Source of the DNA: an uncultured virus (IMG/VR IMGVR_UViG_3300020411_003822) | Taxonomy: Duplodnaviria > Heunggongvirae > Uroviricota > Caudoviricetes | Length of the DNA: 64,000 nucleotides | Strand: one strand, 5' to 3' | IMG/VR virus record: IMGVR_UViG_3300020411_003822 | Shown: one piece after another, positions 1,368 through 59,042 of the stretch | Numbering within the stretch: position 1 is the first letter of the stretch | Layout: each line of letters begins with the position of its first letter | Translations under genes and position numbers: made by a program | Notes under the pieces: generated by a model | The model's input: only the letters and a program-made list of their open reading frames with translations | The model's database searches: none | What the model was told of the DNA's origin: nothing

Positions 1368-1734
1368 GATTGAAAGATTGTACCAAAGAAGCGGTACAAG
1401 TGTGCTATCGTTCCAGCATATAATGGACAATGTTGATGAAAAAAGATCAACCCTTCTTGGCGTCTTGTCCTCTCATCCACGATTATTCATGAAGCTGAAG
1501 AAGAATGTGTGGAAGTTAATCCCAGCAGGCGTAGCCGACTTAGAAACGATTTGTGCTGAATACGGCATAGATCGTGAGAAAATGGAATCAGTTATGGACG
1601 ATTCGGGCTCTCTACGGTATCATTGGATTAGAGTACAAAAAGAAGGCGATGGATTCTCCAGAAGAGAAATCCACTACATGATTCACACGATGAGAAAGGA
1701 CGGAAAATTATCCCTTCCTAATTCTACGCAGTAA
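1342..1734 (+). CDS. Hypothetical protein, possible winged helix
   Basis: ATG at 1342 with GGGG upstream; 'STLLGVLSSHPRLFMKLKKNVW'. Confidence 0.5.
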   Translation: MGKKKVVNEIERLYQRSGTSVLSFQHIMDNVDEKRSTLLGVLSSHPRLFMKLKKNVWKLIPAGVADLETICAEYGIDREKMESVMDDSGSLRYHWIRVQKEGDGFSRREIHYMIHTMRKDGKLSLPNSTQ

Positions 1735-2682
1735 TTGCACATCATTTGCAGGCATAGTAGGCTTCGAAGGCGGATTACGAATAGGTGGATCCCCCTGCAT
1801 TCTTTTTGCATACTTGTAAATCTGCCTTCGTTCTACAAACGCAAACTGTGCAATCCGTACTCCCGAATAATGCCTGGTTCTTGTCCTTGAGGGAATATCT
1901 GCCCGTTGAGCGGCAAGGTAAATTGCCGATGCCGCTTGATTCTTTGCAGGGACATTAGACAAAGGTATTGCACACAACTCCTTCGCCATTTTGTTAATCT
2001 CTTCGTTGTCTGAACCCATCCTGGCTAACACATTTGATACAATGTTGGCGGCACTGGGTGGAATCAATTTAATCAGATCCATCTCTCTTGCTTGTTTGAT
2101 GAATCGTTTGACTACCTTCGGTACTGGAGATTCAGAATGAGCCTTACACAAATCTTCAACTGGTATTGGAAGGTCTGCATTCCGTGATGCAATGTGCAAA
2201 GCAGCAATAACAGTAGTTTTGTGTCCTCTGCCTCCTTTGCTGGAACCTGCATTGTGAAATTTCTTGAATAAGAAATGTGCTTCGAGTAACGCTTGATTAG
2301 GCATTTGGAAATCAAGTGCAATCCTATCCATTTCTTCTTTTGCCTCATCAATTCTTCTTCTCGCACCCGTTTTAGACAGGGTAGAAGATGATGATTGAGT
2401 ATAGGTGCCAGCCTCCAAGTCAAACTTTGTATCAGATGTTTCCAATATATCCAGATCCTTCCTCAAACCACAAACCCCGCAAGCCACTTCCCATGTATTG
2501 CTGCTCCCGTCTACATTGCCCACATCTAATCGTTCTAACAATCTATCAAGGCTATCCCAATCCTCCTGTCTGATAGCCCACAACACGCACCCATCTGGGA
2601 CATATCCCTGGTCGCATGACTCTCCGTCAAAGGCTTGCGCCTCCAAAGGGGCGTACTCAGAGACATTGGTGATGACCGCCAT
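1708..2682 (-). CDS. tfb: Transcription initiation factor IIB (TFB)-like protein
   Basis: Zn-ribbon half EVACGVCGL, then two cyclin-like repeats (IALDFQMP...GRGHKTTVIAALHIASRNADLPIPVEDL; AASAIYLAAQ). Confidence 0.8.
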   Translation of the reverse strand: MAVITNVSEYAPLEAQAFDGESCDQGYVPDGCVLWAIRQEDWDSLDRLLERLDVGNVDGSSNTWEVACGVCGLRKDLDILETSDTKFDLEAGTYTQSSSSTLSKTGARRRIDEAKEEMDRIALDFQMPNQALLEAHFLFKKFHNAGSSKGGRGHKTTVIAALHIASRNADLPIPVEDLCKAHSESPVPKVVKRFIKQAREMDLIKLIPPSAANIVSNVLARMGSDNEEINKMAKELCAIPLSNVPAKNQAASAIYLAAQRADIPSRTRTRHYSGVRIAQFAFVERRQIYKYAKRMQGDPPIRNPPSKPTMPANDVQLLRRIRKG

Positions 2683-2714
2683 TAAACAGCCGAAAAGGTC
2701 GTTGGTTATGAAAC

Positions 2715-3192
2715 CCGATGGCCAAAACTATTGATAAAATTGTAAATTATGTGAAATATGGTTGCATAATTTGCCAGAAATCAATAATTCACAGATCACA
2801 GAGTAGCTTTGCTGCAGAAATAACCTGTCAAAAAGGCAATTCTGTGTCTCTGTATTTAATGGCCGATGGCCAAAACTATTGATAGCATTATACAATGCAT
2901 GAAATATGGTTGTGTAAATTGGCATTTTCGAGATCTATTCGAAATTGCTCTTTCACACGCAAATTGAAGTGGTTTGCAGTCATCTGTCTTAATGACCGAT
3001 GGCCAAAACTACTGATAGCCATCATTTTATGATGAAATATGGTTATCAAAAACAGTATTTTCGACTGATTGTCTTGAAAGAAGCTGTTCCAGGAGATGCA
3101 ATTCCTTGCAGATCATGGCCGATTCGAGGCATCTGTCTTAATGGCCGATGGCCAAATATACTGATATTTCTATTACAAATATGAAATATGGG
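2715..3192. repeat. Four bipartite ~48-bp direct repeats (CCGATGGCCAAA...GAAATATGG), iteron/origin-like
   Basis: CCGATGGCCAAA at 2715, 2863, 2996, 3145, each followed by GAAATATGG exactly 38 bp later; AT-rich; lies at the strand switch. Confidence 0.85.
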
Positions 3193-3273
3193 TCTAAATC
3201 TTAGGATTCCTGAGGCCCAATGTAATGAGGGCAGCAATAAAACGCTGTTTTCGACACACTAAACACTACAAAA

Positions 3274-3315
3274 GTCATGTCCCTAAGGGGGCGATGACCC
3301 ATTGTAATGAGGGGG
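3274..3315 (+). promoter_or_regulatory. Repeated CCCTAAGGGGGCGATGACCCAWTRTAWTGAGGG element
   Basis: Copies at 3281 and 4997, diverged copy at 34969, partial at 3217; each precedes a structured non-coding segment. Confidence 0.5.
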
Positions 3316-3335
3316 AGAGAACCCCTAATCTAAAC

Positions 3336-3870
3336 ACAATAGTTGGTGGGATTACGATCCCTCACGAACCAACTGGAGAATCCTCTTTTGCAAGAGGGTG
3401 TATCTGGTATCAATGGTTCACCAACTGTACACCAACGAGGAAATTACAAGCTTCGGGACTTATGTCCCTGGAACCTCGTTGATGCTAAGGAACGAGACGG
3501 CTCGGAAGCGAATCCGAGCCATTAGAATACGGCATAGCAGGGGCAAGTAATCCCTGTCCGTAGGACAATCCCGAAAGGGCGAAGTTCCTCACGCCAACTT
3601 CATGGAGCAGAAGTTGGTACAGTAAGCCATAATGATTGAGGTTTGCGGCATGCGAGGATGATGAAATGAGTAAGAGGCTTTGATAACACTCCGTCAATTC
3701 GGAGGGAATCTATCATCGATTAGACATGTATTGAGTGCATAATTCGCAAGATGAAATGCATAACAGGACTCAGGTTACTCGGTTCTAACGGTCTTTGACC
3801 TATGAACCAGTCGATACGCAGCAATTTATTGCTGAGGAAATTTGAGAAAATGGCGCAAATCAATTAATCA
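3336..3870 (+). ncRNA. Candidate large structured non-coding RNA
   Basis: No credible ORF; many stems (AGTTGG..CCAACT, AACGAGG..CCTCGTT, GGCTCGGA..TCCGAGCC, CCCGAAAGGG); bounded by TCTAAAC and ACTTAAC motifs. Confidence 0.5.
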
Positions 3871-3900
3871 ATCACTTAACACTTAACACAAACTAAACAC

Positions 3901-4191
3901 ATGTCGTCCAAGAAGGAACAGACAGAAACATGGCAAGAGGCAGTCAAGAGGATTCGAGAAAATAATTCGCATCTAAGGAACAGCCACCGCCATACACAAA
4001 GTGGGTTCAATAAAGAACGCCGACAGAAACTCAATGCAAAAGGCATTGGAGTAAATCGGGGAGTGAACACCACTTCACAAACAAGAACTTGCAATGGTTG
4101 CGGAAGATTAGTGCACGCAAGAGGGGTGCATCACACCTCTCAAAGCACACTTAATTTCTGCAAGTCATGTGCAAGGTTCTTTGGAAGATAA
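3901..4191 (+). CDS. Basic zinc-finger protein
   Basis: CNGC...CKSC; preceded by tandem ACTTAAC ACTTAAC..ACTAAAC. Confidence 0.65.
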   Translation: MSSKKEQTETWQEAVKRIRENNSHLRNSHRHTQSGFNKERRQKLNAKGIGVNRGVNTTSQTRTCNGCGRLVHARGVHHTSQSTLNFCKSCARFFGR

Positions 4192-4240
4192 CACAAAATG
4201 CCAACAGGGGCGCTACCATAGTGCCCCTGTTGGTCTAAAC

Positions 4241-4621
4241 ATGAACTTTACAGACGCGAAAGCATGTGTATTGGCTTCATACAATGGCGTAGAACAATTT
4301 TACCGTAGGTGCCACATGGCAAATAGCACTTTAGCCGGTCTAACTGGCAACAAAGTGGTATTCGGACTCGCTAAGAGTTCAATTACGGGTGTTCAGGGCG
4401 GCCATGTATGGACTGAAACACCTGATGGCGTAATCCAAGATGCATTGGAGGACTATTGGTATGACCATGAGCACATACCTCCTCAAATGCACGAATTTCT
4501 AATCAACAACTTCTATGGGGAAGGACGGCCACTTCGAGAGTGGCTCACCCAACCCATGATTGATTTAGCCGAGGCTGGGGGAAACCCCATCCTCGAATGG
4601 AGAATGTCAAGAGGTGTATGA
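4241..4621 (+). CDS. Hypothetical protein (weak transglutaminase-like C/H/D pattern)
   Basis: Start at TCTAAAC-ATG; RRCH...GHVWTETPDGVIQD. Confidence 0.55.
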   Translation: MNFTDAKACVLASYNGVEQFYRRCHMANSTLAGLTGNKVVFGLAKSSITGVQGGHVWTETPDGVIQDALEDYWYDHEHIPPQMHEFLINNFYGEGRPLREWLTQPMIDLAEAGGNPILEWRMSRGV

Positions 4622-4628
4622 TCTGAAC

Positions 4629-4979
4629 ATGATCCAAACGCAACAAATGGCGAAGGATTTAGGCACAGCCTTGAATAATATTCTGTGGGAAAAATACAGG
4701 AATTATCCCTGGCTGATTATACATTATCATAGATCTTTGAACAATACTTTCCTCATCGATATGGGGGAAGACAAACTTCGAAGAATGTATGCAGTATTGG
4801 AAGAATACGGAATCAAACCAAGTATTGCTGCTCTCAACGAGCATCAAAAACCTGTGATTAGTTACCGATTCTTCAACAGGAAAACAAATCAAGAAGAATA
4901 TTGGGATTTTCAATTTGAATGGGTGGCTTGTAATGAGGCAGCCCGACTTCAAATTGACCTAATTCCAGCATCGAACTGA
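4629..4979 (+). CDS. Hypothetical protein
   Basis: Starts at TCTGAAC-ATG; stop is the TGA of ACTGAAC at 4975. Confidence 0.65.
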   Translation: MIQTQQMAKDLGTALNNILWEKYRNYPWLIIHYHRSLNNTFLIDMGEDKLRRMYAVLEEYGIKPSIAALNEHQKPVISYRFFNRKTNQEEYWDFQFEWVACNEAARLQIDLIPASN

Positions 4980-5019
4980 ACACATATGAGTCACCCCCCT
5001 AAGGGGGCGATGACCCAAT

Positions 5020-5370
5020 ATATTGAGGGATAGTATTCCCTCACCAATCATGTAGCTAATTGGCTGAGGAAAAGGCCATTGATCGAGTGCGAAGAAAAGT
5101 AACGAGGGAAAAAAAAGACACAGCACTCTCCCTTACGACATGACAGGGGTAAAACCCAAACAAATGCCTATTGAGAAGGGCAGTTATGAGGTCGAGCAGA
5201 AGAAGCGAGCACGATAGTGTGAGGACCTTACTTCGCTACCCGCCGAGTAAAATCGGTGAAAGACCAATGATTACTGCAGCGAAAGCACCACCAAACCAGT
5301 TTAATTACAGGTAGTGTGGCTTCAAAATAGGAACTGAAAGAATTTGCAGGTAGCAATTGGAGACGGGAAC
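5020..5370 (+). ncRNA. Candidate structured non-coding RNA
   Basis: ORF-free; hairpins (TGAGGGA..TCCCTCA, GGGTAAAACCC, GCGAAAGC); ends at ACTTAAC. Confidence 0.35.
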
Positions 5371-5557
5371 TATACACTTAACATGAACAATATTATCATA
5401 GGAGATAGGATGAAACGCTACGAAGTAGTAACTGAAGAAAAAGAAAAATATGGAATGAAGGTAACAGTCATTCGATTCAAAAGATACAGACCGATAGCGA
5501 AATATGATCCTTTCTCAATGTTCTAATCCCATAAGGGATACTTTACAATAATTTGTA

Positions 5558-5600
5558 CCACAAACCCCCCAAGCGGTGAGCCGTTTGGGGGCTTTTGTGG
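5558..5600 (+). terminator. Strong hairpin followed by ATGAACTCAACA
   Basis: CCACAAACCCCCCAAGCGG-TGAG-CCGTTTGGGGGCTTTTGTGG; the same ATGAACTCAACA follows the 12088 terminator. Confidence 0.45.
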
Positions 5601-5794
5601 CATGAACTCAACACAAACCGACTCGCAACCATCGAGCCAAAGAAAATATGAGATAGAAGAATGAATCGCATGCGGGGTGGGTTGGTCTGTACTACTATAC
5701 ACTTAACACTAAACCTGGGGAGTGCTTTGATTGTTTACACAGGGAACGGAGCCTCGGTTTGATCACCAAATAGCCGAAAAAACAATCACTTAAC

Positions 5795-6240
5795 ATGAAC
5801 AAATCCTGAGAGGTAAGTCGATTTATCGACTAATGTATCTCCAGGTGTTGAAGGTCACAAGAGGCAGAAGCCAATTCTGACACGAAGACAGATATTGAAG
5901 AAACCAATGCATCTTTTGAGCGAAACTGTCCGTCACGAGGGGCGAAAGCCCGAAACTGTTGGCGGCGAGGCGAATGAGGATGCATTGGTGGAACAGAACT
6001 GTGGCGCTCTCCTTTGGAGAGTCGATTTGAGAGAGTGGAAAAGGTCTAACATCAGACACCGCCACAACATCAGGGATGATGGAAAATGTTTGGAATAGTA
6101 ATGTCGTGAAGCATCACGGCTGGAGGGCAGAGGTTCTGAGAGGAACTAAAACCCTTCATACACCATATCTGATTCAAAGTTGGTATCGGTCACACAAACC
6201 GATACAGCCCCATGTGTGGGGTCAATAGAACCAATTGTGA
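5795..6240 (+). ncRNA. Candidate structured non-coding RNA
   Basis: ACTTAAC-ATG opens only a 4-codon ORF; stems CCTGAGAG..CTCCAGG, CCAATGCATC..GATGCATTGG, GGGCGAAAGCCC, CTCTCCTTTGGAGAG. Confidence 0.45.
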
Positions 6241-6248
6241 AACTAAAC

Positions 6249-7742
6249 ATGGCGAGTAAGTCAGGGAAAGGAGCCCCGTCAGGGGGCAATGGAAAGAAAT
6301 TAGGACAGAAAATGCAGAAGAAGATCGCTGCCATGCTTATGGCAATGATTGGCTTTGCGAAACTCTGTCTTGGAATGAAGAAGAAGAGCGAAGAAGGCAA
6401 CCCAGTGTTGCGTGTCACACCGCAGGGCGATTCAGGTAGAGAATACCTATTGACTGTAAGTGACCCAGCAGAAGTGAAGACCTTAGCCAGTGAACAGGAT
6501 AGGTTAGCGGCCATTATGAGTGGCCAAGAAGATCCTAACATCACAAAGGCAAATACAACCGGTTTGAATAAGCAGGTTGAGAAGGTCATGAAGTTACTTT
6601 CATCGTTGCAGAACCTGGAACGGTATGCAAACATGGTGTTTGGTATTGGTGATTCACCAAATCAGATTAACCTAATCATGCCGGACAAGAAGACGAAGTT
6701 CAACTTCTCAATGCGCGACTTGAAGCGGTTGGTCGGAATGGCCAACAATGCAACAGGAAACAAGCGTATGGAGCAAATGAACGAAATCGATTTCTGCATA
6801 AAACTTCTCGCAATGCAAGGGCAACTTGAGGTTGGCAAAACCTTCAACGGGCCCTCATTAGTCGTGGTATACAAGCCCAATAAGAAGGCAGTAAAGTTCC
6901 ACGAAAAGAAAGTCATGTATTGCATGACAATGGAAAACGGAATACCAACATGGAAAAAAGGCAACCTCGAACTCGTTGCACGAGACAAGCGAGGCAAGGT
7001 CGTATTCTGGACAAAAATCAACAAGGAATTGAAGAACGCAAGATTCGTTGATAAGACCAACAAGAAGGCAGTAGCCAAAGATTGGTTTTTCCAGATAAAA
7101 CAAAAACATGGTAAATGGGTTTTGGACAAGAAAACGCAACAAGTCCTACAGGCAGCCAAAGAAGCGGGTGTCTTGAAGGGCTACTCATTCGGAAAGGAGT
7201 GGGCTGACGACATTGAAGCACCAGTAAAGAAGTTGAAATACACTCTCGCTGGATTCATTATGTCTACAACAAACGCAGTTAGCACAGGCGTGGGGCACAT
7301 TGTTCCAGCAAGTCTGAGAGACGCTTTTTGCAAAATCAGCCTCAAGAGACTTCTTGAAGGACACCCAGATGAAGTGTCCCTACTGAATGAAGAGAACACC
7401 GCCCTATTGGGTGAGTTGAAATCGTTGCTCATCTTGGACGACTGGAAGATCCCAGCAATTTTCACCACTAACAACAGTGAGTGGAGCCCATTTGATCCGA
7501 AAAATCTCAGTGAGTTAATGGATTCTGGACTGTTGAACAGCGTCATCAAGAACGATGTGAAGGCGCTATCAAACGCAGCATCCGCAGACCAACTGGAATG
7601 TGTTCCACATGCAAGATTGCTCAACCGGTACTGGAAATGGACCGAAGTAGCAAGCACATGGACTGCGAGCGAGAATCACGATGAGATGATTGACCTCGTT
7701 TCTGTACCTGCTCAAGAACCGGCACAAAAGTCGGCAGAGTAG
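6249..7742 (+). CDS. Large lysine-rich hypothetical protein (497 aa)
   Basis: Long ORF; start moved to ACTAAAC-ATG. Confidence 0.8.
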   Translation: MASKSGKGAPSGGNGKKLGQKMQKKIAAMLMAMIGFAKLCLGMKKKSEEGNPVLRVTPQGDSGREYLLTVSDPAEVKTLASEQDRLAAIMSGQEDPNITKANTTGLNKQVEKVMKLLSSLQNLERYANMVFGIGDSPNQINLIMPDKKTKFNFSMRDLKRLVGMANNATGNKRMEQMNEIDFCIKLLAMQGQLEVGKTFNGPSLVVVYKPNKKAVKFHEKKVMYCMTMENGIPTWKKGNLELVARDKRGKVVFWTKINKELKNARFVDKTNKKAVAKDWFFQIKQKHGKWVLDKKTQQVLQAAKEAGVLKGYSFGKEWADDIEAPVKKLKYTLAGFIMSTTNAVSTGVGHIVPASLRDAFCKISLKRLLEGHPDEVSLLNEENTALLGELKSLLILDDWKIPAIFTTNNSEWSPFDPKNLSELMDSGLLNSVIKNDVKALSNAASADQLECVPHARLLNRYWKWTEVASTWTASENHDEMIDLVSVPAQEPAQKSAE

Positions 7743-7749
7743 AACGAAC

Positions 7750-8050
7750 AGCAACAAGGGACTTCTCACAACTCCATCTTCGATAGAGAGAAAAAATAGA
7801 TTACAATGTGAATGGGGAAACGAGGGTGAACTGCCCGATGACATCTCCATGCCAGTAAATCCCACGAGGATTGCGCCGTAGGCAGTAGGCCGTAGGCTTA
7901 ATCGTGGGGCTAATGAGTAAACACCAACCGCAAACGGGTTCGAATCGGAGCGGTTCGGTATTCTTGATTCTCAATGAAATCAAAACAAGCACACGGATGG
8001 ATACCAGAGGGTGACGCCAATGAAGGTATCCATCCACTTGGTGCATAGGA
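7750..8050 (+). ncRNA. Candidate structured non-coding RNA upstream of tRNA-Lys
   Basis: CCCACGA..TCGTGGG enclosing two GCCGTAGGC hairpins; GGATGGATACC..GGTATCCATCC. Confidence 0.45.
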
Positions 8051-8068
8051 ATTTACAGAACACAAACA

Positions 8069-8142
8069 GGGCCTGTAGCTTAGCCAGGTAGAGCGTCCGG
8101 CTTTTAACCGGACGGCCAGGGGTTCGAATCCCCTCAGGCCCG
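8069..8142 (+). tRNA. tRNA-Lys (TTT)
   Basis: Acceptor GGGCCTG/CAGGCCC; anticodon arm TCCGG-CTTTTAA-CCGGA; T-loop GGTTCGAATCC; CCA not encoded; flanked by motif variants. Confidence 0.95.
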
Positions 8143-8161
8143 CTTAACACTAAACACGCAG

Positions 8162-8467
8162 GTGGAAAAAATGAAACTAAGCGAAATAAGAGAAAGATGT
8201 GGGATTGTACTACAATTACCAGCGAACAACAGGAGCAAAGAAAGATTGAAACTACCGGTTTCAATTGAGAACGGAAAGATATTGTGGGATAAAAGAACCC
8301 CAAACAATCTTCGTAAAGGCTCAATCCGCAAAGAACAACACGGACTATGGACTAAAATCTATGAGAATTGTGTTGCAGAAGGAACAATGTTCAACTGGGA
8401 AACGAGAGGAAATTCCATCACGCTTTCACAAGATGAACTAAGCCAAATCGTAGAAAGATTTGCTTGA
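8162..8467 (+). CDS. Hypothetical protein
   Basis: ORF; AGGTGG upstream of ATG at 8171. Confidence 0.6.
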   Translation: MEKMKLSEIRERCGIVLQLPANNRSKERLKLPVSIENGKILWDKRTPNNLRKGSIRKEQHGLWTKIYENCVAEGTMFNWETRGNSITLSQDELSQIVERFA

Positions 8468-8645
8468 GTTACAGACATTGGAGGAAATATACCTCGTTGC
8501 ACTCCAACAGCAGCGTCTCATTGACCTTTCGGGGTCAATGACTGCTTAGGATAATAGCCGTAAATGTGCCGGCTTTAACATTCCCAATTATGGGAAATCC
8601 GCCGATACAGGGGGTCAGCCCCCTGTATTGGCTCTAAAACTTAAC

Positions 8646-9020
8646 ATGAGTAAACTTCCAGTTCAAGTGAGCAGAGAAGGTGATCTAAATTTCAAAAGAG
8701 CCTCAAAGGCTTTCGAGAAATTAGCAAAGGCATCTAATGAAGGATGCGAGAAAAGCAAAGAACGGGCCGAGTCACATGCAAGTGATTGGGACGAACGAGC
8801 AGAAAGATGCCAAGAAGTAGGAACACAAACCGAAAATGTTGGCGGAAAATCAGTCGAGTTTGACTCGAATGATTGCAGATTAATGGCAAGAATTTGGAGA
8901 AATTGCACTGAACATGACCGAATTATGGTTATTTTGGGCGTTGGGACTGCTCTATTTGATGCACAGATCCCAACGAAGTTGGACTTACGAAATGGCGCAG
9001 AGATTAGAAGAGTCACATAA
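8646..9020 (+). CDS. Hypothetical protein; reads through the motif at 8907
   Basis: ACTTAAC-ATG start. Confidence 0.6.
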   Translation: MSKLPVQVSREGDLNFKRASKAFEKLAKASNEGCEKSKERAESHASDWDERAERCQEVGTQTENVGGKSVEFDSNDCRLMARIWRNCTEHDRIMVILGVGTALFDAQIPTKLDLRNGAEIRRVT

Positions 9021-9105
9021 GGCTAATATTGTCTATCAGACCAATAATCTTCATGCATCGTTAAATGTTATTAAGGAGCAGATAGAACTCCTCAAAGAAG
9101 ACTGA
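8914..9105 (+). CDS. Small membrane-anchored protein
   Basis: Motif to motif; N-terminal hydrophobic stretch. Confidence 0.6.
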   Translation: MTELWLFWALGLLYLMHRSQRSWTYEMAQRLEESHKANIVYQTNNLHASLNVIKEQIELLKED

Positions 9106-9107
9106 AC

Positions 9108-10064
9108 ATGGTAAGCAATAGCAGCACCGGTAAGGAATACAACCCTGGAGGGTTGAAGGCACTGACAAAATATTTCACTTACGCAGAAATTGGTAAGCAG
9201 GGATTAGGCAGTGGTAAGGTGGGCGATTTTGCGAATATCAACGAATTAGAAGGAAACTTCGACATATTGGAGAATATTGACGGAACAGTGGCAGGCTACA
9301 ACTGCCAACAGATTTCCATAGATGATGAAAGCACATGGCCCGTTTGGGTCCGAATCGAGGCACAAGGCTTCCGCATGGATAACATCCTGGAATCTTTTGG
9401 TTGCCCGTGCTCGACACCAACTCCAGTCGAAGACCCAATCAGGGGAGAAGTGTACTGTCAAGAATGTGGATACATCAATGACGGATTACAACACTTCGAT
9501 GAGGACATGGACATGGACCTTGCTGAAGATGAATACGAATACGAAGAAGACCAATACTATGGTTGGACCGAGAACGATCTGTTTAGGGCCTTCGGGCTCC
9601 ATGCTCAAATCAGGTTTGAGGAAACAGCAGTAGAATATCTTGAGTCAGAAGAGGAAGAACAAAAGAAGAGGATTGACCGAATATGGCAAGATAGCCGAAG
9701 GCCCTCTATACAGTTTAACTTCGATGCAGATGGATACTACATCGGTAAACGGGAACAACCTCCACCGTTGGAATACGATGCTCGTTATATTGCGGAAACG
9801 AATATGACCGTAAAAGTCAGGAATATGATGACTGGCGAGTATGTAACAAAAGTGATTCACAAAATCAGCAATGAATGGAGCCCAAACAGCGAAAGAATTG
9901 GGCTGGGAGTAACAATGAAATCCCAGCACGACCAAAAGGTATGGCACGCTCGTAAGCAGTTTGACGACCATTTCGCAAGATGTAACGGGCACCCAGGTAA
10001 CTGTCTTGAATGCCACAGAACCGACAAGCGGCTTCAAAAGTTGATTGCGCATAGATCCCACTAA
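9108..10064 (+). CDS. Protein with internal TFIIB-type zinc ribbon
   Basis: CPCS..VEDPIRGEVYCQECGYI; acidic middle; C-terminal CxxH..CxxC. Confidence 0.7.
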   Translation: MVSNSSTGKEYNPGGLKALTKYFTYAEIGKQGLGSGKVGDFANINELEGNFDILENIDGTVAGYNCQQISIDDESTWPVWVRIEAQGFRMDNILESFGCPCSTPTPVEDPIRGEVYCQECGYINDGLQHFDEDMDMDLAEDEYEYEEDQYYGWTENDLFRAFGLHAQIRFEETAVEYLESEEEEQKKRIDRIWQDSRRPSIQFNFDADGYYIGKREQPPPLEYDARYIAETNMTVKVRNMMTGEYVTKVIHKISNEWSPNSERIGLGVTMKSQHDQKVWHARKQFDDHFARCNGHPGNCLECHRTDKRLQKLIAHRSH

Positions 10065-10128
10065 AGAATGAAACTGGATTCTACGGAAGGAGTAAAACAG
10101 CGTAGGAACAGAAAACAGATAGCTGAAC

Positions 10129-10284
10129 ATGGCAAAGACACCGAGTGGAGAAAGACCACGAAAGAAATCGGTCCGAAAGGAGCGAAGAAAACATGGCAAA
10201 TACCGTAAAGGTGGCCGTAAAGGAGAAAGAAGTAACATTGGGGAACCAGGAAAAAACAATCCCCATGTTAAGAAAAAAATCTGA
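10129..10284 (+). CDS. Very basic 51-aa peptide
   Basis: GCTGAAC-ATG to the TGA of TCTGAAC; MAKTPSGERPRKKSVRKERRKHGKYRKGGRKG... Confidence 0.55.
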   Translation: MAKTPSGERPRKKSVRKERRKHGKYRKGGRKGERSNIGEPGKNNPHVKKKI

Positions 10285-10286
10285 AC

Positions 10287-10568
10287 ATGACTTCGGACAT
10301 TAAAGTGCTTGCAGCACTGGAGAAGGATGAGATTGACCCTTTCTGGGTAGACCAGAAGGGCAAATCAATGCGAGTGAACAAAATCACCCGCGATGTATGG
10401 ACTACAGTATTACCCTACGAAATAATTGGAACAAAGGATTTTGCAGAAATCACATATGTTGCCCCTGACGGCAAGATTGGATTTTACGAAATGCCTTTCC
10501 ACAGATTCAAATTATTCGTTGAGAGTGGAATCTTCCATCCTTTAGAGGTAATCGAGAACGAATACTGA
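10287..10568 (+). CDS. Hypothetical protein
   Basis: Motif-bounded ORF. Confidence 0.65.
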   Translation: MTSDIKVLAALEKDEIDPFWVDQKGKSMRVNKITRDVWTTVLPYEIIGTKDFAEITYVAPDGKIGFYEMPFHRFKLFVESGIFHPLEVIENEY

Positions 10569-10739
10569 ACATGACAACATATCCAGAGAGATTTGATGTT
10601 AGGGAGTTGGTTAAACTCGATATAGAGGAACTAACAGGATTACACTTGGCTCTAAGTGAAGATAAGAGGAGGGTTGATGACGCAATAGCAGTCAAAAACG
10701 GAACCAAAACACTTGGAGAGTGTAAAGAATAATCTGAAC

Positions 10740-11051
10740 ATGACCGAAACTATGACTGAATTAGTTGAGGATGAGACGATGATCCAGATACCAGCAGAAG
10801 ATTTTGCTTGGCTTATCGGAATAAGTAATGACGCATTGAAGGAACTCAAAAAGCACAGGGAAGCCGGAACTCGCATAGAGTCAGATTACCTGTATGAATT
10901 CATTCAACATATGGGAGATAAACCATTACACAAGATTCTTCTCGAAAATTGCATCGAACCGGAACCAATATGCTGCCTTACATGCGGCAGTTGTGATGGT
11001 TGCGATTGCGAAGAGATACAAGCAGCAGACGCAATGATTGCGTATGTATGA
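10740..11051 (+). CDS. Hypothetical protein with Cys cluster
   Basis: TCTGAAC-ATG; CCLTCGSCDGCDC. Confidence 0.6.
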   Translation: MTETMTELVEDETMIQIPAEDFAWLIGISNDALKELKKHREAGTRIESDYLYEFIQHMGDKPLHKILLENCIEPEPICCLTCGSCDGCDCEEIQAADAMIAYV

Positions 11052-11061
11052 TACAGAACAC

Positions 11062-11301
11062 GCCCTCATTGAGTAAAGATTGGAGCATCAGGCCAATCTT
11101 TCTCAAGTTCCATGATTGAGTGAAGTTGGAGTGTTTACCAATCTTCCTCAAGGAACCCTGCTTCAGTAACAGGTGGGGGCACCTTAACACTAAACACGCC
11201 CCCAGAATTGGTGAAGATAAGGCCGTGGACGAACCTGCAAAGGAAAGCCTCGCGGACGAATCTTGATTCAAGGAACCCCCTGCGTCAAAGCAGGTGGGGG
11301 C
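11062..11301 (+). ncRNA. Two tandem homologous structured RNAs (11062-11180 and 11198-11301)
   Basis: Each closed by GCCC(T/C)CA...TGGGGGC; shared TCAAGGAACCC..CTGC..CAGGTGGGGGC; separated by CCTTAAC-ACTAAAC. Confidence 0.6.
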
Positions 11302-11316
11302 ACCTCAACACTAAAC

Positions 11317-11688
11317 ATGTCTCAATACATCAATGTAGTGGACAAGGATTCGCTCATGGCAGCATGGGCGTGTGGGCAGGGACCAAACAAGACCAAGTGC
11401 ATTATCCCAAATGTCGTAATTGATTACGGTCAAGGGGAATATGCCGCCAGGGACTTAGTAGGTTACTTGCAAAGAATCAGTTACGAAGACGGCTCTGGCT
11501 TGTCCTTCGAAATCTCAATGTATATCAATTGCACTAAGATGGAAGACGAACCAGAAATGGAACTCGTACATGGGTATTTGGATCTTCGCAAGACGAAGAA
11601 CAACAACACCCAGGTAATCGTGGGCGACAACAACATTCAGGTAAGTGGAAACATGACTCTGAATGATTCCGTTGTTATCCGTGATTGA
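11317..11688 (+). CDS. Hypothetical protein, paralog of 11708
   Basis: GYLQRISYEDGSGLSFEISMY. Confidence 0.7.
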   Translation: MSQYINVVDKDSLMAAWACGQGPNKTKCIIPNVVIDYGQGEYAARDLVGYLQRISYEDGSGLSFEISMYINCTKMEDEPEMELVHGYLDLRKTKNNNTQVIVGDNNIQVSGNMTLNDSVVIRD

Positions 11689-33967: not shown

Positions 33968-34885
33968 ATGACTGATGAAGATACTCGAAAGATGTTTCAG
34001 AATTGGGCAATGAGGGGTGTCATGCCTAACAGCCAGAAGAATGACTTCTGGACACCCAAAGAAGTGTTTGATGCATTAGATGAACGCTTTGGGCCATTCA
34101 CACTTGATGTGGCCTCAAGCGAAGAAAATTCACTTTGCATTAATTTTTACACAATGGAAGACAATGGATTAGAACAGAAATGGAATGGCATCGTTTGGTG
34201 CAATCCTCCATATGTCAAACAACTCTCTGCTAAATTGAACAAGGAGGGAGAGATTGTAAGAGAACAGATAGGTCGTGGAGATAATTCCACAATCAAGGAT
34301 TGGGTGTTGAAGGCATACCAATCAGTATTGTCAGGAGATGCAGACAGGGTGTTGGTATTGATCCCAACATACCTTTCGAATCATTACTGGCACGACATTA
34401 TTTTCCCTAAAGCATCACATCTTGTCTTTTTCAAGTCAAGACTGGACTTTCAAGGGCCACACATGCGAGCCGGAGGGGCATCAAGAAATCCCTCTGTTGC
34501 AGTGGTCTTTTCCAGAATGTGGAGCGGAGTGGGAATGCAGGTGTTGAGAATGTCTAACAAAGGCGAATGGCTGACAGAGGAAATCTGGGACAGGAAGACC
34601 TTAGAACTCAAATTGAAAAATGGAGTAGAGGCATTCGGACACGAATTAGAAGGAGACAAGTTTGTAGTGCTAAAGGGTTCAACAGCAAACTCAGAAGCAA
34701 GACCATCATGGAGGGAAACCGAAAGAAGATGGAGACAGAAGCTTGTCGAAGATGGTGCATTAAAACAGGTAGGGGAACAGATGATCTTCACCAGAGATGT
34801 AACATTCAACTCGAAAAGTGCCGCAGCATCACAAGTGAGAGCCGTACAATCAAACGGTAGGAAGTTGTGGGTTGAAGCAAACTGA
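33968..34885 (+). CDS. Phage Dam-type N6-adenine methyltransferase fused to a DUF4357-like domain
   Basis: WTP..FTLDVASSEEN..WCNPPY; C-terminal FVVLKGS...FNSKSAAA..NGRKLW. Confidence 0.85.
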   Translation: MTDEDTRKMFQNWAMRGVMPNSQKNDFWTPKEVFDALDERFGPFTLDVASSEENSLCINFYTMEDNGLEQKWNGIVWCNPPYVKQLSAKLNKEGEIVREQIGRGDNSTIKDWVLKAYQSVLSGDADRVLVLIPTYLSNHYWHDIIFPKASHLVFFKSRLDFQGPHMRAGGASRNPSVAVVFSRMWSGVGMQVLRMSNKGEWLTEEIWDRKTLELKLKNGVEAFGHELEGDKFVVLKGSTANSEARPSWRETERRWRQKLVEDGALKQVGEQMIFTRDVTFNSKSAAASQVRAVQSNGRKLWVEAN

Positions 34886-34889
34886 ACAT

Positions 34890-34964
34890 GGGCGCATAGT
34901 GTAGTGGAAATCATTCTGGCCTTCTAAGCCGGAGACCTGGGTTCGAATCCTGGTGCGCCCGCCA
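34890..34964 (+). tRNA. tRNA-Arg (TCT)
   Basis: Acceptor GGGCGCA/TGCGCCC, G73, encoded CCA; anticodon arm CTGGC-CTTCTAA-GCCGG; GGTTCGAATCC; its 5' G is the G of ACTGAACATG. Confidence 0.95.
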
Positions 34965-55750: not shown

Positions 55751-56050
55751 ATGACAACAGTTGGCGGTATGAATTGGAATGAATTTCGCAAGCAGCACAA
55801 AGGAGAGGACAAAGAGAGAATCTCCGAACTATGGAAACTATACAAAGAAGGAGAATACGACCCCGAAGCTTCAACAAACATCGACCCAAATCACGGACAC
55901 GATCTGGACTACATCGCAGAAGTAGAAGCAGAGATGGCCGAAGAAGCCGAAGAAAATGAAGTCAAGAGAGAACCTGAGCAACAGGAATACTTGAACGAGT
56001 TAAACAACGAAGAGAAAAGAACCGGTTTGAAATCAATCACTCACTGGTGA
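55751..56050 (+). CDS. Hypothetical protein
   Basis: ATG 21 nt after TTAAACGG; WNEFRKQHKG..ISELWKLYK. Confidence 0.6.
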   Translation: MTTVGGMNWNEFRKQHKGEDKERISELWKLYKEGEYDPEASTNIDPNHGHDLDYIAEVEAEMAEEAEENEVKREPEQQEYLNELNNEEKRTGLKSITHW

Positions 56051-59042
56051 AGTTATTTTTCATCGCTTCCATTCTCTCAAGGTAATCCTTGAACTCATGG
56101 TCTATCCATGTGATCGTGTCATAATTAGCACCATATCTGACTACTGTGCCAGGTTCCAGTTCACTGATTGGTATATCCGGCAATCTTTCATTCATCAATT
56201 TCCGCTCCTCTTTCGTTCTTTTCGGAGCCTTAATCAATTTCTTGTTGTAAACAGACCTTAACTGACTCTCAAACTTCTTCTCTTCTTTGGCAGTGGGTGC
56301 ACTTGTGCCCTCAGAGAGATTGTATTCCTCCAATAATGAATCCAATGATTGAATTGCATACTTCCAATCATCGATTAATTCTATGAATGAATCCTGAGCC
56401 AATAACTCTTCCTTCATTTCAGCCCAAACTCGAAGATGTTGTTGTTGCTCAATATCCTCTTTCCTTCCGCCTGCAGAAAGAGTTTCAAGAATAGAATCCG
56501 CTTCACCAGTCCAAGATTTACCCGTAACCTCAACGGCAAAATCATTCACTGCTGTATAAGCATCTTTCAATTGCGCTTTCAAAGCGAGAAGCTGTTTAGT
56601 CGGTACAGATGCATATTTGCCTTCTCCAGCCTCGCCAAGAGTTCCGTGTTTGTCCACTTGGCCAGCGATCTGACTTGAAAGTGGATGATTCATATCATCA
56701 ATCAATCCCATCGGTGCTGCACTAAGCAAAACTTGTGTCTGTCTCTCATAGGCCTGAGCAAGCACACTTTGGTAATGCCTGGGAACACCGTCAATAATCT
56801 CAGTTCGAGCACCTTTGGTCGCAGCCCTACCTGTTACGGAAGCAGAACCAGAGCGGGCGTTTGACATGACAATATCACTACACAAGGAATCAGCGAGTAA
56901 CAAGTAATGCTTGAAATGAACAGGAACAGTTTTCCCTCCAGAAAGTATCGTTTTCCCATTACCTTGAGCGTTGAACATATTGTGGGCAAGTTGCGCTCTT
57001 GCCGCTTCAATCCCAAGAACAAGTTCAACCTGCCTTGAATCACTTGTTGTTGTACGATTAAAATCAATTTTCAATTTCTGAGTCCCAGTCAAGTCATCGT
57101 TGTAATCATAATTCGATGCAGTTATGAAATGACCCTTGAAATTATTCATTCGACCATCATTGATGTCTTTGTAAGAAAGCAAAATGTAGTATTCATCCAT
57201 TATTGGATCGTTAATGATTCGACCTCCATGCATAAAGGCAAGCGGATAATCAGAGTTTTGACCTTTACGACTTGCACCTGGATAAGTCAAAAAGGAAATA
57301 TCATCAGGATAAATTGTGTATTCTCCATTCACCTTGTAATCAAGACTACCTATGTGCTTCGCAATATCGACTTGACCCATGTGATCTTCTGCTCTGTAAT
57401 CAGCAACCATTCCAATTTCCGCTTCTTCGTATTTTCCATCTTCAACATCTTTTGCCTCAATGGTTTGGTCCCATTCCTGATAGGGTTTGCCATAATTGAA
57501 TTGAACCACATTAGCGTTGATATTGTACCATCCGTGATGACAATTTCCACAACGCCTTAATTTCCGACCAAGTTCAGCAATCTCGAAATCATATCTATCT
57601 GATGTAGACATATCAATTTCAACCAAACCAACCGATTCATCTTGTAGCCTCTCTAATTCTTCATCAGTCAATCCTTCTGGGTTATCCTTGACTCCCGTAA
57701 TATCAAAGGAACTACCAGCAGTAGCTTCAGCGAGCAAATTCGAAACAACAGTCGCATCATATTCCGTCTGAGGCCATCTTGAGTCCCATTCTGGATCCTC
57801 CACCTTTTCAGTACCTTTCCTTCCAGCCTTGTGTACCAATTTAGCAAGAGTAACAGGGTGTTTACAGTTTCCACACACCTCCAAACGCATTAAAATCTGC
57901 ATCAAACTCATTTCAAGACGGAAGGTGAGGTATGGAAAAGTAAGTACAATGCCTGTAATTTTTTCATCACCTATCTCTACCGTCACGCCATTTCGGTCCG
58001 ACATCTTACAATTCTTCCAAATAAAGTGAAGCGGATTATCTGCATCCCCTACTGTTCTAAAGGAGCCATCAGATGTTCTCAGTTGCCGCCTAATGATGGT
58101 CCATAATTGTGCTACATCATTCAAATCGTTCTTCTTCAACTGGTTATACTCGAATGAGTTTCGATCAGACAATGCTAATTCAAGTTCAGATTCAGATAAG
58201 TTGCTATTCAACATTCTTTCATTCTTCAAGTAAATGAAATATGATTGAGACTTTGCCGCCTCAAGTTGTGCTTTGAAGGCTAAATTCTGCAATCTCTTAT
58301 GCTCATCAAGGACAGCCTGGTATTCTGGCAAAGGCTTTCCAGTCACCTCAACCATTTCGTCTAAAACTTCACTGTACTCTTGTTTCGTCTCATAACGCTC
58401 TTCCTCAGGAAATGACCTAACCTTCTCATACGCCTTTTCAAGCACCCCTGAAAGCATCAATTGAATATGAGCAGGTTCATTCTTTACAATACCGCAATGG
58501 TCGGACAAAACAGTTCTTTTCAAGCCCTTAGCAAGTTTTTCCGCCTTGTTCTTGTCGAATCTAATCTCCGGAGGTAACGCTAAAGCAACAAGTGCGTTCT
58601 TGTTCGGTGTCTTCCCTACCTCGATATTGAGAAGTTCTAATTCATCCTTGTTTGTAAGCACACCAGCATAGTGGAATGTTCTCATTCCTCCCTGATATGC
58701 AGGTTCAGAAATTGAAGTCGCAGCAATTGGGCCAATAGGCGTCATTGGATCTATCCTTGCTTCTAAAACAGATTTCTGTAAACCATCCAACACCTTCTTC
58801 ACAAAATCATTGGGAACATCACTCAATTTCCTGTATTTTTCTGTAAGAGGTTCCTTTGTATCGGCATCCACGGCACCCATCTTAGTGGCAACATCAAGGA
58901 GCATCAAGTCATTAACAGCATAATGTGTATTGTCCAGGGAATCCCTCAAAAGATTCTGCCAGTCCAGTACGAGGTCCGCCGCCATGAAGTCGCTAAGCAG
59001 TTCATCCGTATGAAGAAAGCGACAGTTGAAATTACGATTCAA
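56037..59042 (-). CDS. Divergent DNA-directed RNA polymerase subunit A''/Rpo1C-like, with large insertions
   Basis: PIGPIAATSISEPAYQGGMRTFHYAGV (trigger-loop region), LGIEAAR, KHYLLLAD. Confidence 0.85.
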   Translation of the reverse strand: MNRNFNCRFLHTDELLSDFMAADLVLDWQNLLRDSLDNTHYAVNDLMLLDVATKMGAVDADTKEPLTEKYRKLSDVPNDFVKKVLDGLQKSVLEARIDPMTPIGPIAATSISEPAYQGGMRTFHYAGVLTNKDELELLNIEVGKTPNKNALVALALPPEIRFDKNKAEKLAKGLKRTVLSDHCGIVKNEPAHIQLMLSGVLEKAYEKVRSFPEEERYETKQEYSEVLDEMVEVTGKPLPEYQAVLDEHKRLQNLAFKAQLEAAKSQSYFIYLKNERMLNSNLSESELELALSDRNSFEYNQLKKNDLNDVAQLWTIIRRQLRTSDGSFRTVGDADNPLHFIWKNCKMSDRNGVTVEIGDEKITGIVLTFPYLTFRLEMSLMQILMRLEVCGNCKHPVTLAKLVHKAGRKGTEKVEDPEWDSRWPQTEYDATVVSNLLAEATAGSSFDITGVKDNPEGLTDEELERLQDESVGLVEIDMSTSDRYDFEIAELGRKLRRCGNCHHGWYNINANVVQFNYGKPYQEWDQTIEAKDVEDGKYEEAEIGMVADYRAEDHMGQVDIAKHIGSLDYKVNGEYTIYPDDISFLTYPGASRKGQNSDYPLAFMHGGRIINDPIMDEYYILLSYKDINDGRMNNFKGHFITASNYDYNDDLTGTQKLKIDFNRTTTSDSRQVELVLGIEAARAQLAHNMFNAQGNGKTILSGGKTVPVHFKHYLLLADSLCSDIVMSNARSGSASVTGRAATKGARTEIIDGVPRHYQSVLAQAYERQTQVLLSAAPMGLIDDMNHPLSSQIAGQVDKHGTLGEAGEGKYASVPTKQLLALKAQLKDAYTAVNDFAVEVTGKSWTGEADSILETLSAGGRKEDIEQQQHLRVWAEMKEELLAQDSFIELIDDWKYAIQSLDSLLEEYNLSEGTSAPTAKEEKKFESQLRSVYNKKLIKAPKRTKEERKLMNERLPDIPISELEPGTVVRYGANYDTITWIDHEFKDYLERMEAMKNNFTSE

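Follow-up and report, generated by a model that had tools for sequence, protein, structure and literature searches.

The DNA analysed here, called the window in the following, is a stretch of 64,000 nucleotides from an uncultured virus (IMG/VR record IMGVR_UViG_3300020411_003822; Caudoviricetes) which, as far as its genes tell, probably is a virus-like element hosted by Poseidoniales, the marine archaea of Marine Group II. A gene array with all genes on one strand extends over ∼53 kb of the 64-kb window, from ∼3.3 kb to 55.5 kb, and the head of this array (positions 3336–8645) contains six blocks which are poor in open reading frames (ORFs). We favor, with modest confidence, the interpretation that three of the segments in these blocks, B1, B2b, and B4, encode non-coding RNAs that are stable and structured. 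The arguments for this interpretation are that the three segments have no usable reading frame, that they are found as separate and exact contigs in RNA libraries, that B1 is conserved between strains, and that the folds of B1 and B4 favor the plus strand.

The six blocks are all given on the plus strand, namely B1 (3336–3900), B2 (4980–5382, comprising B2b), B3 (5527–5800), B4 (5801–6248), B5 (7743–8068), and B6 (8468–8645), and sum to 2194 nt. The original prediction, which had been made from the letters of the window, had already listed ORF-poor blocks in this region and had stated that most of them are bounded by variants of a motif. Both statements hold: the predicted edges are off by a few to ∼40 nt, with the predicted segment 5613–5690 lying inside B3, and copies of ACTTAACAC or CTAAAC are present at the block edges (3874–3903, 5369–5388, 5694–5713, 5788–5803, 6243–6251, 8143–8159, and 8639–8654). 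When ORF-free DNA is defined as gaps of at least 120 nt without an ORF of at least 45 amino acids (aa) starting with ATG, it accounts for 1739 of 5310 nt (33%) at 3336–8645 versus 1431 of 47455 nt (3%) at 8646–56100. No single reassignment of a stop codon opens all six blocks, a blastx comparison with the window's own frames found no decayed paralogous genes in them, and beyond the D2 repeat (see below) and the motifs there is no paralogy among the blocks. In addition, a related strain has a 1-nt deletion in B2b at 5228 and lacks 13 nt of B4 within 5914–5937. As these changes break any frame, B2b and B4 are non-coding. Perfect hairpins with stems of at least 6 bp occur at 7.75 per kb in the head versus 4.26 per kb in the array (1.8-fold). 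The three hairpins that had been quoted in the original prediction are all present, but the two with GNRA loops have stems of 3–4 bp only, and none of the 17 calls with perfect stems of at least 6 bp, corresponding to 12 distinct hairpins, has a GNRA or UNCG tetraloop.

Contigs of two metatranscriptome runs from a single study, X2 and X4, and of two DNA runs from other studies, X5 and X6, were placed on positions 2500–11500. Depth refers to the k-mer depth of the contigs, which do not give strand, true ends, or expression level. B1 is represented by a contig at 3335–3784 in X2 (depth 32.5) and at 3348–3779 in X4 (depth 248), B2b by a contig at 5137–5367 in X2 (depth 419.7), and B4 by a contig at 5827–6132 in X4 (depth 685.1), each with 0 differences to the window. 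The B1 RNA of ∼450 nt starts right after the CTAAAC at 3330–3335, the B2b RNA of at least 231 nt ends just before ACTATACACTTAACATG, and the B4 RNA of at least 306 nt is built around one long hairpin, imperfectly paired and tipped by GCGAAAGC, and includes an internal repeat of 20 nt (5921–5940 and 5951–5970). The listed coding contigs have depths of 4, 6.6, 9.1, 20.4, 27.4, and 32.8 in X2 and of 11.6, 15.3, 17.6, 21, 23.9, and 29.8 in X4. Positions 2500–3101 have zero RNA cover, whereas the DNA runs X5 and X6 cover them at depths of 11 and 7, and therefore DNA carry-over is not the source of the RNA signal. Apart from this control region, RNA-free parts such as 8520–8820 and 10326–10626 are no evidence of silence.

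The DNA runs X5 and X6 carry a related strain of the element. In the region 2500–3892, comprising a group of upstream repeats and B1, this strain shows 16 differences in 1393 nt, and six of the 15 differences listed fall at 3336–3892. The corresponding values are 48 differences in 957 nt for 4235–5191 and 47 in 1423 nt for 9153–10575. The divergence is about 1% for B1 versus 3–5% for most neighboring stretches, and no stretch of the head is better conserved between strains than B1. In the fold of the B1 RNA, 61% of the positions are paired; four of the five substitutions are at unpaired positions and the remaining one changes a G–U to an A–U pair. These five substitutions are compatible with the fold, being too few as proof of it. 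In the same strain the ORF at 3901–4191 is lost, position 3892 being joined to 4235 with seven shared letters. As B1 is retained without the ORF behind it, B1 is independent of this ORF.

The stability of the predicted folds was expressed as z-scores against dinucleotide shuffles. All six blocks are more stable than their shuffles, with whole-block values on the plus strand of −6.1 for B1, −3.3 for B2, −3.6 for B3, −5.7 for B4, −2.5 for B5, and −5.9 for B6, and a second folding tool gave −5.3, −6.5, and −6.8 for B1, B4, and B6. For the intervals of the RNA contigs the values are −4.3 (B1, 3335–3784), −2.6 (B2b, 5137–5367), and −4.3 (B4, 5827–6132). More telling than the fold energy is the strand asymmetry of B1 and B4. 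The minimum free energy of B1 is −151.7 kcal/mol on the plus strand versus −135.8 kcal/mol on the minus strand, and that of B4 is −101.8 versus −81.8 kcal/mol; the plus-strand folds have 17 (B1) and 10 (B4) G–U pairs versus 10 and 3 on the minus strand, and the z-scores of the minus strand are weaker (−3.9 and −3.5).

A search of the 64 kb with Rfam 15 at the gathering score returned two matches, both tRNAs. At E≤5 over positions 2600–9000 six matches were obtained, none of them in B1, B2, or B4, and the non-tRNA matches in B6 are far below the gathering score (FinP, 25.9 vs. 45 bits). Thus, the proposal of the original prediction that the blocks may be novel non-coding RNAs is upheld for B1, B2b, and B4, which have RNA contigs and no match in Rfam 15, and is given up for B3, B5, and B6.

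We suggest that the head of the array is made up of small units with separate boundaries, arranged as a mosaic, and that three or more of these units would encode RNAs. B1 and B2 may each be transcribed from an AT-rich promoter word of their own, CCCAWTRTAWTGAGGG (D10), copies of which are found at 3216 (3216–3231), 3298, and 5014. The D2 repeat (3273–3313), which contains this AT-rich word as CCCATTGTAATGAGGG, ends 23 nt before the B1 contig, and the B1 copy of CCCAWTRTAWTGAGGG would likewise end 23 nt before an RNA start at CTAAAC|A. A second D2/D10 copy (4989–5029, CCCAATATATTGAGGG) forms the head of B2, with 21 nt of D2 copied exactly at 4997–5017. The D2/D10 words may be promoter-like, TATA-like elements. 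The RNAs might accumulate since their structure protects them, and could serve in host takeover as trans-acting scaffolds or decoys that bind proteins, presumably by a way other than base-pairing to the ACUGAAC gene-start motif. Very tentatively, and with more doubt than confidence, one may see in them RNAs without precedent among archaeal virus-like elements, abundant, structured, and acting in trans, which would be made at the start of infection behind their own promoters and would help an element with TFB and RNA-polymerase subunits of its own in taking over its Marine Group II host, perhaps by soaking up host transcription or defense proteins. RNAs of the 6S type and decoy RNAs act in this manner in bacteria and eukaryotic viruses.

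Several points weigh against our interpretation. Coding DNA of the array is also more stable than shuffles: for 22 coding tiles of 300 nt (6400–52299) the mean z-score is −2.22 (standard deviation 1.34, minimum −5.36), and among eight non-coding tiles only 3336–3635 (−6.8) and B6 (−8.4) exceed every coding control. The stretches 5527–5800 (−4.3) and 5801–6100 (−4.6) are clearly below the coding mean, whereas B2, B5, and the block tails are within the coding background; the tail of B1 (3600–3899) has a z-score of −1.5 and no special signal. As coding DNA folds too, the parts that stand out are reduced to B3 and B6 and to the 5′ parts of B1 and B4. In windows of 120 nt the blocks are inseparable from the ORFs at 3901–4979. 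In view of these two controls folding energy alone is insufficient to make the case for RNA genes, and the expectation of the original prediction that the blocks fold better than shuffled sequences, which is borne out for all of them, loses its force for B2, B5, and the tails. Furthermore, B2b opens with the gene-start-like CGACATGAC and holds a possible ORF of 25 codons (5140–5217), and with this start and this ORF B2b could be a small mRNA. B4 has 15 substitutions and 30 gap letters in 412 nt and is conserved no more than coding DNA. Both RNA runs are from a single study and consist of contigs only, which leaves strand, ends, and level unfixed; contig depth cannot rank genes, and B1 in X2 is no deeper than the contig of ORF497 (32.5 vs. 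32.8). Each of the three RNAs is located directly upstream of an ORF, the contigs ending 16–117 nt before the start codon.

This last arrangement leads to the main rival explanation, according to which the RNAs are cis-acting leaders, that is, structured 5′ untranslated regions of ORF 3901, of the 47-aa ORF, and of ORF497, whose attenuated or processed 5′ fragments accumulate. The depth indeed falls from the RNA to the ORF (248, 70, and 8.6 in successive bins of X4), and an X2 contig at 6161–8040 puts at least 88 nt of the 3′ part of B4 into the transcript of ORF497. On the contrary, B1 is unchanged in strains which no longer have the ORF behind it, and no known cis-regulatory RNA family in Rfam matches in the blocks. 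We consider this explanation rather unlikely.

A different proposal is that the blocks act as DNA, either as hairpin-rich sites, located where gene direction switches, that serve replication, packaging, or recombination, or as cassette boundaries of a "promoter plus stem–loop" type. In favor of this proposal, B6 folds equally on both strands (z-score −5.9 on the plus and −6.9 on the minus strand, with 2 G–U pairs each), has no RNA cover at 8520–8820, and is lost together with the ORF at 8171–8467 in X5 and X6 (joint 8148>8639, three shared letters). This joint, the joint 3892>4235, and two further ones of the DNA runs (10575>10755 and 8916>9153) are located exactly at motif copies, and the hairpins at 4201–4233 and 8601–8632 directly precede motif copies. 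In addition, the minimum of the cumulative GC skew is in the first 3 kb of the window, just upstream of the head. However, RNA libraries contain B1, B2b, and B4, for the most part as deep contigs, and B1 and B4 are clearly strand-asymmetric. Moreover, the GC skew here follows gene direction, and thus no origin is located by it. For B1, B2b, and B4 we therefore prefer RNA genes and regard an exclusive role as DNA as improbable. What the joints do tell is that the units of the head are exchangeable cassettes, as these gene-sized strain indels join at copies of the motif.

Little credence is given to the idea that ordinary spacers or remnants of decayed genes make up the blocks, with read-through as the source of their RNA and their folding as a general property of the DNA. 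It would agree with the coding controls that reach z-scores of −5.4, with the failure of 120-nt windows to separate blocks from ORFs, and with B2 and B5 being within the background. It is at odds with the depth, which ranges from about that of coding contigs (B1 in X2) to ∼100 times as much, with B1 being the most conserved stretch of the head, and with the lack of any decayed paralogue.

The motif at the block edges is related to a word found at the starts of the array genes. The sequence YTRAACATG (mostly aaaACTGAACATG) is present 89 times in the window, always on the plus strand and in 88 cases within 4235–55141, versus 4.25 copies expected by chance, and precedes about 85 genes. The consensus over 79 CTGAACATG sites is aaaA-CTGAAC-ATG-rc; between −60 and −6 of these sites no other conserved signal was found, neither a TATA-like nor a Shine–Dalgarno-like one. 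Of 93 starts led by the motif, 29 have the stop of the preceding frame at a TGA within the word. The head of the array carries a longer variant, CTTAACAC-TAAAC. One CTGAACATG copy (34882–34890) adjoins the tRNA-Arg(UCU) gene at 34882–34964, the tRNA beginning at the G of ATG. As the word also precedes a tRNA, it may act in transcription or in the processing of RNA, and not in translation alone. Literature searches with the motif string led, in the papers listed, to nothing but primers and unrelated sequences. The original prediction had further proposed that one of the RNAs acts as a leader, guide, or ribozyme on the ACUGAAC sites. Such an RNA, or a spliced leader, with ACUGAAC(AUG) as its target (candidate substrate ACUGAACAUG) could account for the position of the B1 contig right after CTAAAC, for the end of the B2b contig right before a motif copy, and for the word at the tRNA-Arg gene, and is nevertheless very improbable, as no segment antisense to the motif is present in B1, B2, or B4, no ribozyme family matches at E≤5, and X2 and X4, where contigs can drop rare forms, show none of the 14 listed joints and thus no sign of a fusion of leader and body. 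The single-stranded complementary segment, which the original prediction had asked for, is thus absent from the head RNAs; the sole duplex with the motif in the head involves GTTCGGT at 7953 in B5 (−9.3 kcal/mol, ∼16th in the window), and the top duplexes are in coding regions elsewhere.

The remaining blocks appear to be of other kinds. B3 probably is a terminator-like hairpin or a cassette boundary. It contains a G+C-rich stem (5558–5600) followed by CTTTTGTGG, and the hairpin at 5566–5591 has the form of an intrinsic terminator, with 11 pairs, eight of them GC, and a T tail; the RNA depth in the bin 5510–5810 is 0.79 and 0 in the two runs. B5 is a co-transcribed spacer between ORF497 and the tRNA-Lys gene, ORF497 and B5 being together on the X2 contig 6161–8040 (depth 32.8), and its z-scores of −2.2 to −2.5 do not exceed those of coding DNA. 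B6 comprises three near-perfect hairpins, which are not followed by a T run, and probably forms, with these hairpins, the end of a gene cassette missing in related strains. The 3′ two-thirds of B6 fall in the bin 8520–8820, which has no RNA cover in X2 and X4. As to expression, named in the original prediction as a check, RNA cover is seen over B1, B2b, B4, and B5, with little or none over B3 and the 3′ part of B6.

Upstream of the head four direct repeats (2715–3206, plus strand), ∼148 nt apart, each begin with CCGATGGCCAAAAC and contain a GGCC-GAT-GGCC palindrome. They are located between the minus-strand gene of a TFIIB-like (TFB-like) protein and the array, close to where the strand switches and the GC skew has its minimum, and give the strongest local fold signal in windows of 120 nt (mean z-score −3.8). 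The repeats can be read as short ORFs beginning with MAKT(I/T)D..MKYG and may be an origin-like or a regulatory array.

The other features of the head are, like these repeats, on the plus strand. The B1 RNA is followed by a tail or spacer (3785–3900) with a hairpin at 3819–3834 and a motif run, ACTTAACACTTAACACAAACTAAACACATG. The dispensable cassette at 3893–4234 then consists of the small ORF at 3901–4191, which codes for 96 aa with Cys pairs and has no Pfam or PHROG match, and the hairpin at 4201–4233. Two ORFs of 126 aa (4241–4621) and 116 aa (4629–4979) precede B2, and a small ORF of 47 aa (5383–5526), behind ACACTTAACATG, precedes B3. ORF497 (6249–7742) is behind CTAAACATG; its protein has two matches only, its own cluster at 100% identity and one relative at 73%. 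The AlphaFold model of this protein has a mean predicted local distance difference test score of 33 and is unusable, and the protein atlas gave no usable match. B5 is followed by the gene for tRNA-Lys(UUU) (8069–8143), an Rfam tRNA match, and by a second dispensable cassette (8149–8638) comprising the ORF at 8171–8467 (98 aa) and B6. Strain variation is also found at 5722–5838, where related strains have replaced 115 nt, including a CACTTAACATGAAC copy and a hairpin (5816–5831), by 25 hairpin-like letters. Short and therefore weak joints in X5, with sides of 22–43 letters, point to a variant linking the D2 repeat at 3315 straight to 5146; the stretches concerned are 5146–5358, 5886–5907, 6090–6249, and 7782 onward, and the variant would retain B2b and skip B1, three ORFs, and ORF497.

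The assignment of the element to Poseidoniales is based on several findings. The tRNA-Lys(UUU) is 99% identical to a tRNA of a Poseidoniales metagenome-assembled genome (MAG; G001), the flanks being unrelated. A protein of 1001 aa (56040–59042, minus strand) has archaeal Rpo1C/A'' as its closest solved relatives; this RpoA''-like protein is much longer than the cellular subunit of ∼390 aa. A protein with an Rpb5/subunit-H domain (RpoH-like) is encoded just beyond the window on the same contig (L023:17006–17515), and the TFB-like protein (1711–2682, minus strand) was recognized by Pfam and by the TFIIB cores in the PDB. On this sequence evidence the TFB-, RpoA''-, and RpoH-like genes are taken as the element's own partial transcription machinery. 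All listed runs holding DNA of the element have marine or seawater labels, except for one with a coded organism name. The neighbors of the TFB-like protein in the protein atlas are giant-virus TFIIB clusters; this is a lead only and is outweighed by the tRNA identity, the archaeal-type split A'', and the match to subunit H. The tRNA-Lys region is found, in all four runs, in many contigs with differing flanks and depths of up to 1106; the tRNA sequence thus is common to abundant organisms in the samples, consistent with a Marine Group II host.

RNase H and RusA are also encoded in the flanks, on the strand opposite to the array. The coding strand of the array itself is purine-rich (A 35%, G 25%). 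By Pfam the array encodes five proteins of the DNA-methylase family, a Mom-family protein, DUF932, DUF6876, and DUF7007, with weaker matches to a SprT-like and a zinc-protease domain. No capsid genes were seen in the examined DNA of the element, and no DNA polymerase or thermosome genes in its annotated parts. The element resembles the relatives of magroviruses in Marine Group II known as "group D" (PMC5434244, Philosof et al. 2017; PMC11706807), which encode RNA polymerase A and a resolvase and in which capsid genes have not been identified. Shared features are the marine origin, the archaeal-type RNA polymerase A gene, the resolvase, and that no capsid genes were seen, whereas the missing DNA polymerase and thermosome genes, as far as the annotated parts go, set the element apart; this is a likeness, and membership would be a matter of phylogeny. 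The available parts of both papers make no mention of non-coding RNAs, promoters, motifs, or intergenic elements, and likewise the texts returned by literature searches, as far as accessible, mention no such RNAs for these elements.

Searches for relatives returned little. For ORF497, as a single sequence and as an alignment, no relatives were found in viral, metagenome, and genome contigs, and none in viral contigs for the RpoA''-like protein and for the TFB-like protein, the latter searched alone and as an alignment of nine sequences. The TFB-like alignment had no match in any of 401 Poseidoniales genomes, and a search of three MAGs gave one weak match (E 3.4e-4). Relatives of the TFB-like protein (53–93% identity) and of ORF497 are known as proteins, and divergent DNA suitable for covariation was not found in these targeted scans. 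A 16-mer of the head motif is present at 19 viral loci, none of which has CTGAACATG, and a 19-mer of B1 at two viral loci which are otherwise dissimilar to the window; both were dismissed as chance matches. A 21-mer of the D2 repeat was found at no viral locus, and the metagenome contigs carrying it are of the same strain (100% and 99.96% identical). The phage nucleotide collection matches at the tRNA-Lys gene only. An origin of the blocks as copies of host DNA was rejected, as only the tRNA matches three MAGs of the host lineage.

Marine Group II archaea are, according to literature abstracts, among the commonest microbes of the surface ocean and still uncultured. The workings of their viruses are poorly understood. 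The three candidate viral RNAs have exact coordinates and depths of up to several hundred, and can thus be synthesized, probed, and sought elsewhere. They adjoin an unusual transcription set-up, in which the element has TFB-like and RNA-polymerase-subunit genes of its own and a word at its gene starts, and mapped RNA ends would tell whether transcripts begin or are cut at this word.

The original prediction had compared the blocks to the large tRNA-associated RNAs of phages. GOLLD and ROOL are large ornate RNAs that are found near tRNA genes in phages and prophages. Like these, the candidate RNAs of the head are virus-borne, several hundred nucleotides in length, strongly folded, close to a tRNA gene, and made in quantity. 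They differ in being shorter, in the archaeal host, and in that B1, B2, and B4 have no match in Rfam 15, and as no family model matched, the comparison stands as an analogy only. IMES RNAs and the related "psRNAs" are abundant small RNAs of marine metatranscriptomes with uncultured carriers. The very deep RNA in ocean metatranscriptomes is common to both, whereas no Rfam match links them and the carrier is identified here as the putative Poseidoniales virus-like element. Other stable RNAs are made in early regions of phages, namely the packaging RNA of phi29 and the stable RNAs in the tRNA region of T4. These are structured viral RNAs near a genome end or a tRNA cluster that are abundantly made, as the head RNAs appear to be; in the head there are no packaging genes nearby, and similarity was assessed by Rfam only. 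Finally, the promoter-early stem–loop (PeSL) cassettes of T4-type phages consist of small genes. The units of the head are organized in a similar way, with a repeated short word and a hairpin at their edges and with gain and loss of units between strains at joints in this word. The differences are that the word is CTTAACAC, CTAAAC, or CTGAAC and abuts the ATG, that its promoter role is putative, that the host is archaeal, and that some of the units here would carry RNAs rather than proteins.

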